From positions 14,111 to 78,110 of the forward strand of contig VXUF01000048.1 of NCBI GenBank assembly GCA_009837085.1: a DNA stretch of 64,000 bases, written 5' to 3'. The notes under the pieces were generated by a model. It saw only the letters and a program-made list of their open reading frames with translations. It ran no database searches and was not told the origin of the DNA. This document shows positions 12,965 to 19,969 of this stretch, in pieces. Both the position numbers and the translations under genes were made by a program. The number at the start of each line of letters is the position of its first letter. Position 1 is the stretch's first letter. The DNA is from Holophagales bacterium (lineage in GTDB: Bacteria; Acidobacteriota; Thermoanaerobaculia; Multivoradales; Multivoraceae).

Positions 12965-14041
12965 CTAGTTTCCGGAGTTCCCCAGTGCGTCCGCCTCGAG
13001 CACGCGAGCGCCGCGCAGGATGTTCCCCATGGAGTAATTCCCCTCGTGGCAGGCGTACTCGAAGACCCGGTCGGTCGTCGAACGCAACACATACTCGCCG
13101 GTCCAGGTCGCTGTCCACGATGAGGGATCGTCCACCGTGAAGCGGTAGAGCACGTCGCCGTCCTCGAGCTTTGTAAAGCGCTCGACAACGTGCATCTCCG
13201 TGGAACCACCAAGGAGAAATGCGTCGGGATGGAAGTTTGTCGTGTCGACGACCAACGTGTCGCCCTCCCACCACCCGATCGAATCGCCGGCCCACTTCTT
13301 GATCTCCGACGGCAGATGCTCCACGGCGCGCCCCTCGGACTTCATCCGCACCACCCGCGCGTCGTGAACCATCTCGATCAGGATCATGACGTGATCCTCG
13401 GTCTGGACGATGGTCTTGTAGTTGTTGTAGCCGCTGGGGAGCGTCGGCGCGGCGCCGGTGAACCCCACGATGCAACGCTCCTGGGCCAGCAGCGACTCCG
13501 GACCATCGAACGGTCCGGGCTCGTCGCTGTCGAGCCAGAATGCTGTGCCGTCGTTGTCGCCGCGCACGATCTTGGCATTGGTCGCGGCCGCACGCCTGGC
13601 CGCACTCTCGGTCATCGGCGGAAAACGACCGTTCAGTGGATCGATCAGAATCGAGGTGCGAAACTTGCCGTCCACCGCGAAGGCCTCAGTGCCCCGGTCG
13701 AGCCAGAAGAAGTTGTAGCCGCCGACGTTGCCAGAACCGCCGTCCGATCCGTCGCCACCCTCGGGTGGCGCCTCACGTTCCGGGTCGCTCGCCTCGGATT
13801 CCTCCTCGATTCGCGCAGCCATGTCGCCCTCCATCCGCGTGGCCTCTTCCCTGCTGAGATAGAGGTTGTCACCGTAGCGTTCCGGGCGCTGGAGCGGGGT
13901 CACCGTCGCGGCGTTGTAGTTACCCGTGAGATCGGGACGGCCACTGGCCGTGCGCGGCACCCCGTCGTCGTCGGCGGCGATTCCGGGATTGAGGGCGAGC
14001 ATGAGTGCGACGATAGCCAGGGATCGGATGACTCTCTTCAT
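12965..14041 (-). CDS. Conserved secreted protein of unknown function, paralog A
   Basis: 358 aa. Signal peptide MKRVIRSLAIVALMLALNPGIAA. The C-terminal half is alignable to 16128..17111 (..HDARVV..W.GDS.G.WEGDTLV..T.NF..VERF..DDP..W..PW..FE(Y/F)ACHEGNY..IL.GAR). ggagagg SD. Confidence 0.75.
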   Translation of the reverse strand: MKRVIRSLAIVALMLALNPGIAADDDGVPRTASGRPDLTGNYNAATVTPLQRPERYGDNLYLSREEATRMEGDMAARIEEESEASDPEREAPPEGGDGSDGGSGNVGGYNFFWLDRGTEAFAVDGKFRTSILIDPLNGRFPPMTESAARRAAATNAKIVRGDNDGTAFWLDSDEPGPFDGPESLLAQERCIVGFTGAAPTLPSGYNNYKTIVQTEDHVMILIEMVHDARVVRMKSEGRAVEHLPSEIKKWAGDSIGWWEGDTLVVDTTNFHPDAFLLGGSTEMHVVERFTKLEDGDVLYRFTVDDPSSWTATWTGEYVLRSTTDRVFEYACHEGNYSMGNILRGARVLEADALGNSGN

Positions 14042-14109
14042 ACGTCCTTACCTCTCCAGGACTCTCGAGTATAGTCGTATAACGCCTAGCTCCGTACAGG
14101 AGAATCGTC

Positions 14110-15714
14110 ATGAAAGAAAACGCGACCCGCTCGGGTATCAACCTGTCACCCGTTTACGGGCCCTCCGATGGCAATGGCGACTACAGCAGGCGCTTCGGCA
14201 ATCCAGGGGAGTACCCGTTTACCCGCGGTACCCGTGCCTATTCCGGGCGGGGCTGGATTCAGCGCGAGTTGTCCGGTGAAGGCGATCCCAAACGCTCGAA
14301 TGAGCAATTCAAGTACCTGATGACTCTGGGCCAGACCGGTCTCGATGTGATCGGTGACAGTCCGACGATGTCGTTGATGGATCCCGATCACCCACTCGCG
14401 CGATACACCGTTGGCACGCAGGGCGTCTCACTCTGTCGTCATGATGACTACCGCCAACTGCTCGACGGCATTCCGCTCGACCAGATGTCGATTTCGAGTT
14501 CCGGTCCGTCGATGTTCACGGTGGCAAGCCTCTATCTGCTCGCGAAGGAACGCGGTGTCTCGCCGGGCGTCCTCCGCGGTTCTGTGATCGAGTGGCCGTT
14601 CTACTCCGAACACTGCTCCTATGCGTACAAGATGCCCTTCGATCTCCACCTGCGGATGTCCTGCGACGTCATCGAGTTCTGCAGCAAGGAGATGCCGAGA
14701 TTCCACGGTTTTCTCGAAGACACCTACTTCTTCAGTGAAGCGGGCCTGAACGCGGTCGAGGAGGCGGCCCTCGGCTTCGTCGAGATACGGCACATCGTAC
14801 GCGCGCTTCTCGCACGCGGTCTCGACATCGACAGCTTCGCCCCGCGCATCGCCATCCTCACGAATTGCTCGATGGACTTCTACGAGGAGATCGCGAAGAT
14901 TCGCGCCATGCGTCGCATCTTCGCGCGCATGATGAAAGAAGAGTTCGGCGCCAAGGACCCGCGCTCTCAGGCGGTCAATATCGCAGTGCACACCTCGGGA
15001 CTTTCGCTGACGACCGAGCAGCCAGCCAACAACATCGTGCGCGGCGCGGTCCAGACGGTCGCACTCGGACTGGCCGGGGTCACCGCGCTCGAGATCTCGA
15101 CCTTTGACGAGGGCTACCGAACCCCCAGCAAGGAGGCGCATCTGGTCGGGCTGCGCACGCAGCAGGTGATTGATCTCGAGACGAACATCAACAGCGTGCA
15201 GGATCCGTTCGGTGGATCGTGGTTCATGGAGTCGCTCACCGATGAGGTCGAGGCCAGGATTCTGGACATGGTCAACGAGATCGAGTCGCTCGGCGATCCG
15301 GCCGAGCTGGTCAGCAGTGGTTACTTCAAGCAGTTCTTCCACGGCACGATGGGCCGCTACCACCGGCAGGTGCACGACGGGGAAGTGCTGAAAGTCGGAA
15401 TGAACGTACACCAGATGCCCGCCGAGCAGGACACGCTGCTGCGGGATATCAGCGAGGAGAAGATCGAACCCCTCTTCGATCGAGTTGAGGAGATATCGGC
15501 TTACCGCGACAAGCGCGATCAGAGACCATTGCTGGATTCGCTTCAGCGCTTGCACGACGTCGTGCAGACCGACGAGAACATGCTTGAAGCGGTGCTCGAG
15601 TGCACGCTGGCCGGAGCGACCATGGGTGAGATCGCCGGCATTCTCCGTCAAGCCTGGGGCACGCCCTATGACCCCTACGGTTTTCTCGAGTCGCCCATCG
15701 GAAGTACGCAGTGA
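14110..15714 (+). CDS. Methylmalonyl-CoA-mutase-family large (substrate-binding TIM-barrel) subunit, divergent
   Basis: 534 aa. GEYPFTRG, GQTGLDV..D.PT, EAG..AVEEAA, TSG.SLT.EQP.NNIVRG..Q..A and DP.GGS.F.E.LT motifs match the acyl-CoA mutase family. The canonical RQYAGF and GTVQNDILKE motifs are replaced (see findings). Confidence 0.85.
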   Translation: MKENATRSGINLSPVYGPSDGNGDYSRRFGNPGEYPFTRGTRAYSGRGWIQRELSGEGDPKRSNEQFKYLMTLGQTGLDVIGDSPTMSLMDPDHPLARYTVGTQGVSLCRHDDYRQLLDGIPLDQMSISSSGPSMFTVASLYLLAKERGVSPGVLRGSVIEWPFYSEHCSYAYKMPFDLHLRMSCDVIEFCSKEMPRFHGFLEDTYFFSEAGLNAVEEAALGFVEIRHIVRALLARGLDIDSFAPRIAILTNCSMDFYEEIAKIRAMRRIFARMMKEEFGAKDPRSQAVNIAVHTSGLSLTTEQPANNIVRGAVQTVALGLAGVTALEISTFDEGYRTPSKEAHLVGLRTQQVIDLETNINSVQDPFGGSWFMESLTDEVEARILDMVNEIESLGDPAELVSSGYFKQFFHGTMGRYHRQVHDGEVLKVGMNVHQMPAEQDTLLRDISEEKIEPLFDRVEEISAYRDKRDQRPLLDSLQRLHDVVQTDENMLEAVLECTLAGATMGEIAGILRQAWGTPYDPYGFLESPIGSTQ

Positions 15715-16115
15715 GTCCGATTCGTGTGCTGGTCGGCGTGCTGGGTATGGACCAGCACGAACTGGGCGCAGTCGGCATCGCCAGGATGCTTCGCGACCAG
15801 GGTATGGAGGTCATCTATACCGGTTGCTTCAACACCCCGGAGACCATCGTGCAGGCTGCCATGCAGGAAGACGCGGATGTCATCGGCATCAGCTCTCATT
15901 CCTGGGAGTATCTGTACTACACACCCGAACTACTCGAGCTGCTGAAACAGAACGACCTCGACGTGCCCGTGGTTCTCGGTGGTTCGGTCATTACCGAGGA
16001 GGACGCCGGGAAGATGCTCGACAAGGGTGTCGCGGCAGTGTTCGGCTCTGGTAGCGCGATGACCGACATGATCGACACCGTCAGAAACCTGGCGGCCGGT
16101 GCCGCGACGTCCTGA
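15711..16115 (+). CDS. Cobalamin (B12)-binding small subunit of the mutase
   Basis: 134 aa. DxHxxG motif as MDQHELG, then GISSHS and VVLGGSVI. GTG 15711 overlaps the upstream stop (GTGA). Confidence 0.88.
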   Translation: MSPIRVLVGVLGMDQHELGAVGIARMLRDQGMEVIYTGCFNTPETIVQAAMQEDADVIGISSHSWEYLYYTPELLELLKQNDLDVPVVLGGSVITEEDAGKMLDKGVAAVFGSGSAMTDMIDTVRNLAAGAATS

Positions 16116-16127
16116 GCCCACAGTCGC

Positions 16128-17111
16128 CTACCTTGATGCCGCCAAGGCCGCCTCTTCTGCCCGCGCCCCGGCGAGGATCCCCTCCAGGCCGTAGTTGCCC
16201 TCGTGACAGGCGAACTCGAAGAGATCGTCGGGCGACTTCCTGAGCGGGATCATCACGGTCCACGGCTCCGTCCAGGTCTGCGGATCGTCGAGCGTGACCA
16301 CGTACTCCAGGGTCTCGGGCCCCACCCGAGTCAGCCGTTCCACGAGCTGTAGGTTGCCGGTCGCTCCCCGATAGCCACCGGTGTCCGAGAAGTTGCGGGT
16401 CTCGATGACCAGAGTCTCGCCTTCCCAGTGACCCCTCGAGTCGCCGTGCCAAAGCCGGACGTCCTCCGGCAGGTGGGGCCTGCCGTCGATCGGGACGACG
16501 CGCGCGTCGTGGATCATCTCCATGAGCAAGACGACATGGTCCTCGCCCTGAAAGATCTGGGTGTAGCTGTTGTAGGCGGCGCGGAGGCGAGGTACGCCGA
16601 AGGAGATGCAGCGCTCGGTGAGGCTGCGATCCTCCGGACCCGCTGCCCGTGCGTTTCTGGCCGCACGAAGCGCGGCGGCACGCTTCTCGCCTTCGTCCGT
16701 CAGGGGGGGCAGGCGGCCGTTCGGAGGGTCGACGATCAGCGAAGTGCGGTTGTCCCAGTCGCGCTCGGCGACCCAGAACTGGTTGTAGTTGCCGGTGGCG
16801 GCGTCCGTCGACGTGAACGACTCTGCTCCGTTCAGAGCGAGGTTGAAGACGCTGTCGCCAAACGCGGCATCGTCACTATCGAGACCGAAGAGCGACTCCG
16901 CCCTCTGCCGGATCGCGGCCAGCTCGGCGTCGGTGAGGGTCTCCCGACCGGCCAGGGCCTCGGGCCGCTCGAGCGGAGTCGCGATGTTGTTGGCCCAGAC
17001 CCCCTGAAGATCAGGCTGACCGAAGGCGTTGCGCGGCGCTTTCCAGCCGCTCTCGGCGGCGGCCCCGGACGCAAGAGCCAGAACAAGCAGTGCGAGAGAA
17101 ACGCTTCGCAT
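16128..17111 (-). CDS. Conserved secreted protein of unknown function, paralog B
   Basis: 327 aa. Signal peptide MRSVSLALLVLALASGAAA. Shares N-terminal G.PDL.G.....ATPLERPE and C-terminal FEFACHEGNY motifs with 12965..14041. Confidence 0.75.
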   Translation of the reverse strand: MRSVSLALLVLALASGAAAESGWKAPRNAFGQPDLQGVWANNIATPLERPEALAGRETLTDAELAAIRQRAESLFGLDSDDAAFGDSVFNLALNGAESFTSTDAATGNYNQFWVAERDWDNRTSLIVDPPNGRLPPLTDEGEKRAAALRAARNARAAGPEDRSLTERCISFGVPRLRAAYNSYTQIFQGEDHVVLLMEMIHDARVVPIDGRPHLPEDVRLWHGDSRGHWEGETLVIETRNFSDTGGYRGATGNLQLVERLTRVGPETLEYVVTLDDPQTWTEPWTVMIPLRKSPDDLFEFACHEGNYGLEGILAGARAEEAALAASR

Positions 17112-17193: not shown

Positions 17194-18216
17194 CTACGGC
17201 CGACGATACAAGCTCGCCGGCGCCAGCACTTTCCGGTCCTGTCCTGTTATCGGGCTTGGACCGAAGTCGATCTCGATGGTGATGTAGCGAACCAGCTCGA
17301 GCCCCAGGTCAATCTCATCAGGAGGTCGGCTCGGCCGGTACAGGTGCAACGTCATCGCGGCACATGTTTCCACCTTGACTCCCTGAGCATCGGACACCAT
17401 TTCGACGTGGAACATGTCCTCGAAATGATGCTCAAGGTAGTACTCAAGAGGGATGAATCCACGCGGCACTTCCACAAACGCAAGACTGTACCCGGTATCC
17501 ATCCCGATCAGGTGACACATCCCCATCGAGTCCGCGTTTCCCTGAAACAGCTGACGCAAGACACCAAGGTAAAGCGGCAGCCTGTCAGGACTGTACTGAC
17601 GCGCCCCTTGCTGCTCGAACCAGAGAACCGGTTGGGCGATTCGTTCGGGGATGAGTGCATTCCTCAACACATCTTCGGCCATGCCATGCGGCAGAAAGGC
17701 AAGTCCGCTCATCAGACAGGCCATGATCTCCGCGAGTACCGCGCGGTCCGTTGCATCGGGTTGCAGCTCCAGGGTCTTGCACAAGGCCCTTCGAACCAGC
17801 CCGTCGACGGCCACTCCCTGGCGTGATAGATCACGAAAGACCTGATCCATATGGCCCTGCGCATCCAGGGCCAGGTAGTGGACGACGCCAGGGCCACGCG
17901 CCATATGCTGTCTCTTGATGCCAAGCGCGCCGACACCTACACCACACCCTGTTTCGATAATGACGGCACCAGGCGGCGCCGTCAGAACCCTTTCAAAGAC
18001 AGGACCGAGGTTCCGGCGGTAGAGGCTCGCCGGGCGGATGACTCCGCACTGAGCACTGTACTGCCGATAGTCTGCCGCGAAACCCACATTGTCGTTCCCA
18101 TGGGCGTTCGTGCTTTGAGGATTCTCGTCGAGGACTCTGAAGAGCACGCCCGCATCTGACTCTCGTGGCGGGTACCAGGTTGTCTGAACGAGATCGGCGT
18201 AGTTCTCTAACGCCAT
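17194..18216 (-). CDS. Putative class I SAM-dependent methyltransferase-like protein (orphan, low GC)
   Basis: 340 aa from ATG 18216 (aggaga SD). Motif-I-like VIIETGCGVGVGALG. No other family signature recognised. G+C is visibly lower than in the surrounding sequence. Confidence 0.55.
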   Translation of the reverse strand: MALENYADLVQTTWYPPRESDAGVLFRVLDENPQSTNAHGNDNVGFAADYRQYSAQCGVIRPASLYRRNLGPVFERVLTAPPGAVIIETGCGVGVGALGIKRQHMARGPGVVHYLALDAQGHMDQVFRDLSRQGVAVDGLVRRALCKTLELQPDATDRAVLAEIMACLMSGLAFLPHGMAEDVLRNALIPERIAQPVLWFEQQGARQYSPDRLPLYLGVLRQLFQGNADSMGMCHLIGMDTGYSLAFVEVPRGFIPLEYYLEHHFEDMFHVEMVSDAQGVKVETCAAMTLHLYRPSRPPDEIDLGLELVRYITIEIDFGPSPITGQDRKVLAPASLYRRP

Positions 18217-18265
18217 GCCCTTCTCCTGGATTGAACGAGGTGTAGAGTCATCGCTGGAGATTGAC

Positions 18266-19969
18266 GTGAAGGGTCGCGCATTGGTCACAGCTTACATATG
18301 CGCCGCCTTCGCCATGGCGACGGGGAATCTCTTGCAGGCCCAAGGCCGGGACTTCACCCCGGTCACGGACGCGATGCTCCAGAATCCCGACCCGGCGGAC
18401 TGGTTGAACTGGCGGCGCACCCTGAATGCGTGGGGGTACAGCCCGCTTGAGCAAATCGACCGGAGCAATGTCGATGAGCTCCGGCTCGCCTGGTCGTGGG
18501 GTCTCGAACGCGGAGTGTCGCAGACGACGCCGATCGTGCACGACGGCGTCATGTATGTCGCGAACCCGGGCAATGTGGTCCAGGCGCTCGACGCGCGCAC
18601 CGGCGACTTCATGTGGGAGTACCGCCGTGAGCTGGACGCGCGACGCCGAAGCGCGGCGCAGACGCGCAGCATGGCTGTCTACCAGGATCTGGTGATCCTG
18701 AACACGGTCGATGCGCACATCGTCGGGCTGGATGCCCGGACGGGCGAGGCGCGCTGGGACACGCCGGTCGGGGGCGATCAGGAAGGCTTTACCTTTTCGA
18801 ACGGACCGATCGTCGCCGATGGAACGGTCGTCGCCGGGCTGACAGGCTGCGGGCGCTACCGTGACGACACCTGCTACGTCGTCGGCGTCGACGGCCGCAC
18901 CGGCCGGTTGCTCTGGCGAACCTCGACGATCGCCCGGCCCGGCGAGCGCGGCGGCGACACCTGGGGCGATCTGCCGCTCATGTTTCGCGCGGGGAGCGAC
19001 GCCTGGATGACCGGGAGCTATGACCCGGTCACCGGGCTCGTCTACTGGGGTACGTCGCAGCCCAAGCCGCACAACCGCGACGCACGCGGGACCGACGGCG
19101 CCGCCCTCTACAGCAACTCGACGCTCGCGCTCGACCCTGCGACCGGTGAGATGAGGTGGTACTACCAGCACATCCCGGGCGATGCGCACGACATGGACGA
19201 GTCGTTCGAGCGCATCCTGATCGACTACGACGGCAAGCGTTCGCTGTTCACGATGGGCAAGCTCGGGATTCTCTGGGAAGTCGACCGGGTCACGGGCGAG
19301 TTCGGGCGCGCGACCGACCTCGGCTATCAGAACATCCTGGATGTCGACTCGCGGACCGGTGAGGTGACTTACCGGGACGGAATGCTGACTGACGTCGGCG
19401 AAGAGCTCTCCTTCTGCCCCAGCACTGCTGGCTTCAAGAGCCTGCGGGCGATGGCGTATCACCCCGGGACCGAGGCGTTGTACGTGCCGCTCAATCTCAG
19501 TTGTCAGACCGTCACATTCGGCCCGGTCGAGAAACGCGCCGGGGGCGGCGGCGGGGGCAGCAGGCCCGGACGGACGAATCACTTTCATCCGCAGGCGCCG
19601 AACGAACTGGGCGAGTTTCGAGCGCTGGACCTGCGGACCGGCGAGACCCTCTGGCGCCAGCGCCTCCGGGTGCCCTACAACACGGCGGCGCTGACGACCG
19701 GCGGGGACCTGGTGTTCATCGGCGACTGGGGCCGGCACGTCTACGCCTACGACGTGCGGAACGGCGAGCCGCTCTGGCGGAGCCGGCTCCCGACGATGGC
19801 GAACGGGTTCCCGATCACTTATGCCGTTGACGGCAAGCAGTTCGTCGCGTTCGTGGCCGGCCCGTCGATCAGCCGCTCGAGCTGGGCCACACTTCTCCCG
19901 GCCGACCTCATACCCGACGAACATAACCCGCGGGGCGGTAGCGGCGTTTTCGTGTTCGCGTTGCCCTAG
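18266..19969 (+). CDS. PQQ-dependent dehydrogenase, methanol/ethanol family (8-bladed propeller), periplasmic
   Basis: VTDAMLQNPDPADWLNWRRTLNAWGYSPLEQIDRSNV is the family N-terminal signature, with repeated W-motif blades. GTG 18266 (ggag SD) gives signal peptide VKGRALVTAYICAAFAMATG; ATG 18215 is an alternative start. Confidence 0.85.
   Translation: MKGRALVTAYICAAFAMATGNLLQAQGRDFTPVTDAMLQNPDPADWLNWRRTLNAWGYSPLEQIDRSNVDELRLAWSWGLERGVSQTTPIVHDGVMYVANPGNVVQALDARTGDFMWEYRRELDARRRSAAQTRSMAVYQDLVILNTVDAHIVGLDARTGEARWDTPVGGDQEGFTFSNGPIVADGTVVAGLTGCGRYRDDTCYVVGVDGRTGRLLWRTSTIARPGERGGDTWGDLPLMFRAGSDAWMTGSYDPVTGLVYWGTSQPKPHNRDARGTDGAALYSNSTLALDPATGEMRWYYQHIPGDAHDMDESFERILIDYDGKRSLFTMGKLGILWEVDRVTGEFGRATDLGYQNILDVDSRTGEVTYRDGMLTDVGEELSFCPSTAGFKSLRAMAYHPGTEALYVPLNLSCQTVTFGPVEKRAGGGGGGSRPGRTNHFHPQAPNELGEFRALDLRTGETLWRQRLRVPYNTAALTTGGDLVFIGDWGRHVYAYDVRNGEPLWRSRLPTMANGFPITYAVDGKQFVAFVAGPSISRSSWATLLPADLIPDEHNPRGGSGVFVFALP

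Follow-up and report, generated by a model that had tools for sequence, protein, structure and literature searches.

What does a B12-dependent acyl-CoA mutase act on when residues that determine the substrate in the canonical enzymes have been replaced? This question is raised by two overlapping genes in a 64,000-nt stretch of contig VXUF01000048.1 from a Holophagales bacterium (the window, meaning this whole stretch), which encode the large, substrate-binding (L) and the small, B12-binding (S) subunit of such an enzyme. To our knowledge, only a few acyl-CoA mutase specificities are known, namely methylmalonyl-, ethylmalonyl-, isobutyryl-, pivalyl- and 2-hydroxyisobutyryl/3-hydroxybutyryl-CoA. 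With each new specificity, a pathway or a biotechnological way of making branched building blocks has become accessible. We propose, with a probability of roughly 0.7, that the pair is an active adenosylcobalamin (AdoCbl)-dependent acyl-CoA mutase, by analogy an HcmAB-like assembly of L and S, which belongs to a distinct, widespread and uncharacterised subfamily and would act on a new, non-carboxylated substrate. Activity is argued by the retained cofactor and CoA-scaffold features, a chaperone gene in close relatives, CoA-ester metabolism around the genes of relatives, and purifying selection.

The open reading frame (ORF) listing returns both genes with exactly the boundaries given in a preliminary description of the locus. 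The large subunit matches PF01642 over profile positions 2-512 of 512 (424.3 bits against a cut-off of 22.1, E 7.8e-127) and TIGR00641 with 370.8 bits, above the cut-off of 303.8, and its best sequence match among the Protein Data Bank (PDB) chains searched with phmmer is HcmA (4r3u, E 1.2e-80). Its AlphaFold2 (AF2) model, with a mean predicted local distance difference test score (pLDDT) of 83 and a predicted template-modelling score (pTM) of 0.87, aligns in Foldseek with 4r3u_A at a template-modelling score (TM) of 0.87 and 30% identity, and with human MMUT and P. shermanii MutB at 0.85-0.86. Profiles and fold together place the protein in the mutase TIM-barrel superfamily, confirming the scaffold that the preliminary description had recognised. 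The small subunit matches PF02310 (E 3.2e-24) and TIGR00640 (105 bits, above the cut-off of 57.45), and its best PDB match is HcmB (4r3u_C, E 3.2e-24). Base-off/His-on binding of AdoCbl is marked by DxHxxG with downstream SxL and GG motifs. Since GMDQHELG is aligned with GLDGHDRG of HcmB, the DxHxxG motif is intact, as had been described, and reads D13-Q-H15-E-L-G18 within MDQHELG (residues 12-18); GG is present (VVLGGS), and the SxL site reads S-S-H, a minor deviation of Leu to His. The GTG start of the small subunit overlaps the TGA stop of the large subunit as GTGA, an overlap typical of translational coupling, which it would imply for the two subunits. An RNA search around the operon found no cobalamin riboswitch or other RNA at E<=1.

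The more specific profiles set the enzyme apart. The large subunit scores 301.5 bits with the methylmalonyl-CoA mutase (MCM) equivalog NF006944, against a cut-off of 876, and 158.6 bits with the IcmF equivalog NF045497, against a cut-off of 1500; its determining sites read Leu54, Ser170 and Phe207, where the IcmF-like gene of the same genome has Phe, Gln and His. No other NCBIfam equivalog matched the large subunit at E<0.01. The residues that define HcmA in 4r3u and Xaut_5021 (Ile90, Asp117, Gln208 and the catalytic His) are Leu54, Ile81, Ser170 and Phe207 here, and the protein lies outside the HcmA clade.

The pocket was aligned with phmmer against PDB chains and by gapless profile-profile comparison in hhalign (121 family sequences against 30 canonical ones), and a site-by-site table was drawn up. 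Canonical residues are given in what we take to be P. shermanii numbering. Three substrate-determining stretches had been described as non-canonical, RELSGEG (residues 52-58), GSVIEWPFYSEHCSYAYK (residues 157-174) and TYFFSEAG (residues 205-212), and both kinds of alignment bear this out. RQYAGF aligns with RELSGE and turns Tyr89 into Leu54; GTIQNDILKEFMVRNTY aligns with GSVIEWPFYSEHCSYAY and turns Gln197 into Ile160 and Arg207 into Ser170; GYHMQEAG aligns with TYFFSEAG and turns His244 into Phe207, with Tyr243 kept as Tyr206. The pocket is rebuilt far beyond these three motifs (Table 1). The canonical residues of the tabulated sites are identical in human MUT, HcmA and the MCM of the same genome, and also in its IcmF-like gene except for Phe92 and Asn236; here they are different and invariant in the family.

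The Arg207 loop is of equal length in both profiles, with 20 residues separating an invariant Gly from a Pro, and its alignment is of low confidence: HMMER placed a gap there against HcmA and MAFFT shifted it, by one or two residues. The two-residue discrepancy between MAFFT and HMMER was settled by hhalign of the two profiles, with the loop still of low confidence, and none of the alignments run (phmmer/HMMER, MAFFT, hhalign) placed an Arg or a Gln at the Arg207 site. A check on whether the canonical pocket residues are conserved after all gave the same answer in three independent alignments: they are not.

Table 1. Features of the mutase locus (window coordinates) and substituted pocket sites of the large subunit.
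Feature	Position	Strand	Basis or residues (canonical to here)
Shine-Dalgarno-like AGGAG	14100-14104	+	7 nt ahead of the large-subunit ATG; read in sequence
Acyl-CoA mutase large subunit (substrate-binding TIM-barrel), 534 aa	14110-15714	+	PF01642, TIGR00641, fold
B12-binding small subunit, 134 aa	15711-16115	+	PF02310, TIGR00640, DxHxxG
meaB deletion scar	16099-16128	+	Junction comparison with L110, L202, L163
Pocket site			Gln88 to Glu53
Pocket site			Phe92 to Glu57
Pocket site			Ser114 to Asp79
Pocket site			Ala/Asp117 to Ile81
Pocket site			Phe118 to Gly82
Pocket site			Lys202 to Tyr165
Pocket site			Asn236 to His199
Pocket site			Ile-Ser before Tyr243 to Glu203-Asp204
Pocket site			Phe287 to Leu250
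Pocket site			His328 to Ala292
Pocket site			Gln330 to His294
Pocket site			beta8 His...Asn to Glu328...Ser330

What is kept is the handling of CoA and cofactor. Arg87, Tyr243, Arg283 and Asp-Glu370 are retained as Arg52, Tyr206, Arg246 and Asp333-Glu334, and the small barrel-strand residues Ser129, Ser131, Ser158 and Ala248 stand as in the canonical CoA channel. In MCM, the retained residues serve the CoA channel and the binding of the adenosine ribose. Arg52, Arg246 and the small channel residues, together with the CoA-metabolism neighbours of relatives, point indirectly to a CoA thioester as the predicted substrate. A free acid, a pantetheine- or acyl carrier protein (ACP)-bound acyl group or an amino-bearing compound in its place is improbable. 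Such a substrate would fit the acidic residues brought in at Gln88, Ser114, the Ile and Ser before Tyr243 and the beta8 His (now Glu53, Asp79, Glu203, Asp204 and Glu328), the change of Lys202 and Arg207 to Tyr165 and Ser170, and an N-terminal CoA-nucleotide region that is shorter by two residues and in which Arg82 is not conserved in the family. Set against it are the equivalents of Arg87 and Arg283, the small channel-lining residues, and the placement of relatives among CoA ligases, crotonases, acyl-CoA dehydrogenases and carboxylases, and the acidic side chains need not all face the pocket.

The replacement of Arg207 and Tyr89 by Ser/Gly and Leu argues against carboxylated substrates, and the substrate is thus predicted to lack a carboxylate and not to be of the methylmalonyl- or ethylmalonyl-CoA type. 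Leu54, Ile160, Ser/Gly170, Phe207 and Ser330 would give a larger and more hydrophobic cavity, with one new invariant histidine, His294, in the place of Gln330 and several new acidic residues that may face it. Our best guess for the probable substrate is a short-to-medium acyl-CoA that is branched, hydroxylated or both. The suggestion made in the preliminary description that the enzyme may act on a different substrate is therefore supported by the pocket changes and by the separate clade described below, and stays a prediction from sequence. It had also been stated that the known specificity variants differ at these same sites; this holds for the Tyr89 and Arg207 positions and fails for His244, which is present in all characterised references aligned (human MUT, HcmA and Xanthobacter HcmA) as well as in the MCM and IcmF-like genes of the same genome. 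The change of His to Phe therefore exceeds the known variation in specificity. The family-invariant His294, which stands at the Gln330 position where strand beta7 ends, may serve in place of the missing His244.

These features are shared by a whole family. A search of 5.8 billion proteins found at least 120 protein clusters at 59-96% identity to the large subunit; RELSGEG is present in 117 of 121 family sequences and ED(T/S)Y(F/Y)(F/I) throughout, which shows that the motifs did not arise by chance. Leu54, Asp79, Ile81, Glu167, Tyr171, His199, Tyr206, Phe/Tyr207, His294, Glu328 and Ser330 are invariant or nearly so. When 50%-identity representatives were searched exhaustively with HMMER, identity dropped abruptly from ~54% to ~42% outside the family. 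With a degenerate DNA pattern specific to the family, a member was detected in at least 119 species-representative genomes, and tblastn confirmed 117 of 119 loci as true members, the exceptions being L102 (46% over a 203-aa fragment) and L189 (33%). Features outside the search pattern are kept as well, with Phe/Tyr207 in 88 and His294 in 89 of 104 genome-derived proteins, counts that include some ORF-calling noise. The carriers belong to about nine phyla (Acidobacteriota, Pseudomonadota, Actinomycetota, Thermodesulfobacteriota, Myxococcota, Binatota, Chloroflexota, Spirochaetota and Bacillota) and include the cultured Desulfotruncus alcoholivorax DSM 16058, Novosphingobium sp. B1, Actinoplanes subtropicus and Dactylosporangium darangshiense. 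Among 72,556 plasmid records no family member was found, the best identity being 35%. The ratio of nonsynonymous to synonymous substitution rates (dN/dS) of the large subunit is 0.04-0.10, indicating purifying selection.

The family was placed in a FastTree phylogeny of 148 sequences, comprising 22 family members, full-length representatives, HcmA and human MUT as extracted from the phmmer alignments, and the MCM and IcmF-like proteins of the same genome; verified ECM, PCM, IcmA and RCM sequences are not among its references. The family members form a single clade with support of 100, whose long stem measures 0.67 substitutions per site. This clade lies within a 53-row group in which nearly all sequences lack His244 and carry Asp, Asn, Val or other residues at the site, and branches with support of 97 divide this group from a 95-row group that holds all characterised references (MCM, human MUT, HcmA, IcmF). 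Because this is a quick tree with midpoint rooting, the deep relationships are not to be over-read; the separateness of the family is robust and agrees with the missed equivalog cut-offs of MCM and IcmF. A check for clustering inside a characterised mutase clade, made with the references of this tree and the equivalog profiles, thus came out negative.

The tree also gives a view of the surroundings of the family. About half of the 50%-identity representatives closest to the window's protein (P0126-P0270) lack His244 and have Asn, Asp, Val, Cys, Gln, Gly or another residue at the site. These sequences fall into numerous distinct clades with pocket motifs peculiar to each, and make up a large uncharacterised radiation of mutase-like proteins. 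Several of the His244-less clades also have a His where canonical enzymes have Gln330, which is a lead for the idea about His294 and not support for it.

The gene contexts of relatives fall into two types, split at 70% identity to the window's enzyme, with 98 loci below and 27 at or above; because most loci are 8-kb pieces, the counts are lower bounds. Below 70%, a short-chain dehydrogenase/reductase (SDR) similar to FabG and acetoacetyl-CoA reductase precedes the large subunit in at least 37 of 98 loci, a crotonase follows the L-S pair in at least 14 of 98, and the neighbourhood often includes TetR regulators, AMP-forming CoA ligases and Liv-type ABC transporters. Desulfotruncus alcoholivorax has a compact unit of this type (TetR-L-S-crotonase-ligase-SDR-TetR). 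At or above 70%, in the window's subclade, an SDR or crotonase partner occurs in none of 27 loci, and a gene for the MeaB-type G-protein chaperone stands directly after the small subunit in at least 14 of 27, with many of the others cut off by the end of the locus. The wider surroundings in this subclade differ between loci: acyl-CoA dehydrogenases and luciferase-like oxygenases lie around the pair in L086, a methylcrotonyl-CoA-carboxylase-like set and two ligases in L088, and restriction-modification and glycosyltransferase genes in L003. NCBIfam gives the ligase, SDR and crotonase partners generic names only, with no clue to a substrate. The FabG-like SDR and the crotonase suggest a 3-hydroxy- or 3-oxoacyl-CoA on one side of the reaction in the sister subclade. 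In addition, the residues at pocket positions 161, 162, 168, 170, 173 and 174 are E-W-H-S-Y-K in the window's subclade as against Q-A-D-G-(M/V)-H in its sister, and with these differences the two may not share a substrate. We also observed a protein of ~211-226 aa without Pfam or NCBIfam match directly after the small subunit (L004:12002-12637, L006:2935-3606, L117), conserved in several Desulfobacterota-type relatives in the slot that MeaB holds in the window's subclade.

These contexts bear on the possibility that the family catalyses a known reaction with a convergently rebuilt pocket, so that only the solution would be new; the reaction would be that of 2-hydroxyisobutyryl-/3-hydroxybutyryl-, isobutyryl-/butyryl- or pivalyl-/isovaleryl-CoA. 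We consider this unlikely, although HcmAB is the closest solved relative of both subunits and the GEG of RELSGEG recurs in the RMFAGEG of the IcmF-like gene. The SDR, crotonase and CoA ligase of the sister subclade recall the ligase-mutase-dehydrogenase logic of 2-hydroxyisobutyrate/acetone degradation (PMC7888143; Xanthobacter hcm cluster), and the methylcrotonyl-CoA-carboxylase-like set beside one relative would fit a pivalate or isovalerate route. However, the four HCM determinants are absent, the family is nested in no characterised clade, and the SDR and enoyl-CoA hydratase (crotonase) partners are missing from all loci of the window's own subclade. The acetone-pathway mutase of Desulfosarcina differs too, with a large subunit of 64.7 kDa and the cluster order SDR-MeaB-S-L (PMC7888143). 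A Desulfobacterales relative near a thiamine pyrophosphate (TPP) enzyme and an SDR had prompted the search for a link to the acetone/2-hydroxyisobutyrate pathway of Desulfococcus and Desulfosarcina; with the published gene order and subunit size, and with the TPP enzyme of L001 being of the E1/transketolase type and not of the acetolactate-synthase type, identity of the two systems was rejected and only an analogy kept. A pivalyl-CoA mutase candidate on the Xanthobacter Py2 plasmid turned out to be the canonical HcmA orthologue and served as a reference.

The preferred reading, a mutase active on a new substrate, has to accommodate the missing chaperone. The preliminary description had pointed out that no MeaB gene adjoins the pair, and indeed neither neighbour in the window has a Pfam or NCBIfam match and the only MeaB of the genome lies on another contig. 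This is no trait of the enzyme, because close relatives have L-S-MeaB operons; it is a recent, lineage-specific deletion of ~1 kb. In the Candidatus (Ca.) Multivorans loci L110, L202 and L163, at ~93% nucleotide identity, a meaB of ~1.0 kb stands exactly between window positions 16144 and 16129. The window retains GTG and eight codons of it (16099-16125, VPRRPEPTV), followed by the 3' end of a convergent gene for a secreted protein. The five genomes without MeaB (the window's, L104, L112, L150 and L184) form one clade, with support of 95 and sister to the MeaB-bearing genomes, which implies a single deletion. Among these five, dN/dS is 0.044-0.081 for the large subunit and <=0.16 for the small subunit, indicating that strong constraint on the enzyme persists. 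The genome (4.3 Mb, 96.6% complete) encodes its only MeaB at C159:66140-67369 (+), ~7 kb from the canonical MCM large subunit at C159:73993-75642 (-), which has the motifs RQYAGY, ARGTHIYP and SGYHIREAG. Narrower spans are also given for the two genes, 66395-67177 for MeaB and 74008-75543 for the MCM. It also encodes a PduO-type adenosyltransferase and, at C29:14296-16455 (-), an IcmF-type substrate domain (RMFAGEG, AQNTCIF, SGYHIAEAG) with an ORF that is cut short by the end of contig C29. In this genome the mutase presumably either needs no chaperone of its own or makes use of the MeaB encoded beside the canonical MCM.

The deletion raises the question of whether the pair is a decaying or non-functional remnant here, or a B12-binding protein without catalysis. 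The loss of His244 would fit this too, as would the G+C content of the operon (0.598 at 14001-16000, against ~0.65 in the flanks), which suggests a foreign origin. We regard it as very improbable: both ORFs are intact and translationally coupled, the low dN/dS values come from the very genomes that lack MeaB, Phe207 is the state of the family and no lesion, the cofactor-binding residues are kept, and the genome holds a second MeaB and an adenosyltransferase.

For an active mutase on a new substrate, the reaction would run as follows. The small subunit would bind AdoCbl base-off/His-on through His15, substrate binding would set off homolysis of the Co-C bond, and the 5'-deoxyadenosyl radical would take a hydrogen from the acyl-CoA that runs through the TIM barrel; a 1,2-shift of the -C(=O)SCoA group would follow before the hydrogen is returned. 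A bolder form of this proposal, which we put forward tentatively and at slightly less than even odds, is that the family is a further specificity class without His244, in which His294 and new acidic residues activate the migrating thioester or anchor a hydroxyl or amino group of the substrate, a non-carboxylated, branched or hydroxylated acyl-CoA that no known mutase accepts. Its two subclades, one MeaB-linked and mobile in marine and sponge bacteria, the other SDR/crotonase-linked in anaerobes and soil bacteria, would then serve related but different substrates, in keeping with the six pocket positions at which they differ.

Several points weigh against activity on a new substrate. His244 is important for catalysis in MCM, and its loss could mean low or altered activity; compensation by His294 would be a matter of alignment position only. 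AF2 confidence is lowest at the pocket loops, with pLDDT of 59 for block 201-210 and 65 for block 291-300. The dedicated meaB has been deleted in this lineage, contexts within the window's subclade vary from genome to genome, and the neighbours in the window (secreted proteins, a sulfatase and PQQ dehydrogenases) give no metabolic clue.

Regarding the origin of the operon, sequences from Acidobacteriota, Gammaproteobacteria and Actinomycetota are intermingled in the MeaB-linked subclade (support 100), on short branches and with 83-92% amino-acid identity (compared loci L130, L151, L105, L158, L115 and L124). The taxon labels are those of metagenome-assembled genome bins, some clearly unreliable ("uncultured Klebsiella", for example), and the pattern suggests either horizontal spread among marine, probably sponge-associated bacteria or mis-binning. 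Closest to the window's enzyme, with 95-99% identity, are those of Ca. Multivorans and of Acidobacteriota bins (class Thermoanaerobaculia) derived from sponges. In the window, two paralogous genes for secreted proteins bracket the mutase pair, at 12965-14041 (-, 358 aa) and 16128-17111 (-, 327 aa); they have no Pfam or NCBIfam match and share a C-terminal FEYACHEGNY motif. Of the 14 loci at >=90% identity, which come from Ca. Multivorans and sponge Acidobacteriota, 12 have members of this paralogue family beside the mutase, often in several copies, and no more distant relative has them there. The paralogues are probably an exported family that has expanded in the lineage, and not a functional partner. 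Adjoining the downstream paralogue is a 364-aa ORF at 17194-18288 (-), also without Pfam or NCBIfam match, which has a conserved 365-aa counterpart as neighbour in L104 and L184.

Family members are annotated everywhere as "methylmalonyl-CoA mutase family protein", and metabolic reconstructions that count them as MCM, in sponge symbionts, sulfate reducers, Binatia and actinomycetes, are therefore probably wrong. If the enzyme is active without His244, it would test the accepted view of catalysis in thioester migration. The four cultured carriers offer direct experimental handles. A literature search brought up no publication about this clade or about Ca. Multivorans. The surprise and novelty are limited by the dozens of comparable non-canonical mutase-like clades in the tree; the family is one of many uncharacterised mutase clades, yet unusually well defined: its signature is invariant, it has two operon types and cultured carriers, and the loss of its chaperone can be dated.

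Among known systems, HcmAB of Aquincola tertiaricarbonis (4R3U) is the closest, being the best sequence match of both subunits and the best fold match, with the same split build of a large subunit of ~535-560 aa and a small B12 subunit of ~135 aa. The hcm cluster has an adjacent MeaB-type chaperone, as do the window's close relatives, and an HcmAB orthologue is encoded by Xaut_5018/5021 on pXAUT01 of Xanthobacter autotrophicus Py2. However, HcmA is not sister to the family in the tree, and the pockets differ: RQIAGF in HcmA is RELSGE here (Ile90 to Leu54), STDFD is LDVIGD (Asp117 to Ile81), AQKEY is CSYAY (Gln208 to Ser170), GYHISEAG is TYFFSEAG (His to Phe207), and HCQT is AVHT (Gln to His294).

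Compared to MCM (P. shermanii MutB 1REQ/4REQ, human MMUT 2XIJ and the copy in the same genome), the enzyme belongs to the same Pfam and TIGR family, shares the fold and DxHxxG, and retains the equivalents of Arg87, Tyr243, Arg283 and Glu370. It lacks the carboxylate-binding Arg207 and Tyr89, and His244, His328, Gln197 and Gln330 are all replaced; the genome already holds a canonical MCM with MeaB. A pocket for non-carboxylated substrates, in which the Tyr89 position is hydrophobic, is shared with isobutyryl-CoA mutase/IcmF (Cupriavidus metallidurans 4XC6) and presumably with pivalyl-CoA mutase. RELSGEG and the RMFAGEG of the IcmF-like protein have G-E-G in common, but IcmF, unlike the window's enzyme, keeps Gln197, a Gln at the Arg207 position and Tyr-His (GTVQADILKEDQAQN, SGYHIAEAG). 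The nearest company of the family in the tree is the 53-row group of mutase-like clades without His244, from which it is set apart by its own invariant signature (RELSGEG, ED-T-Y-F-F and AVHTSG with His294), its private stem of 0.67 and its two operon types.

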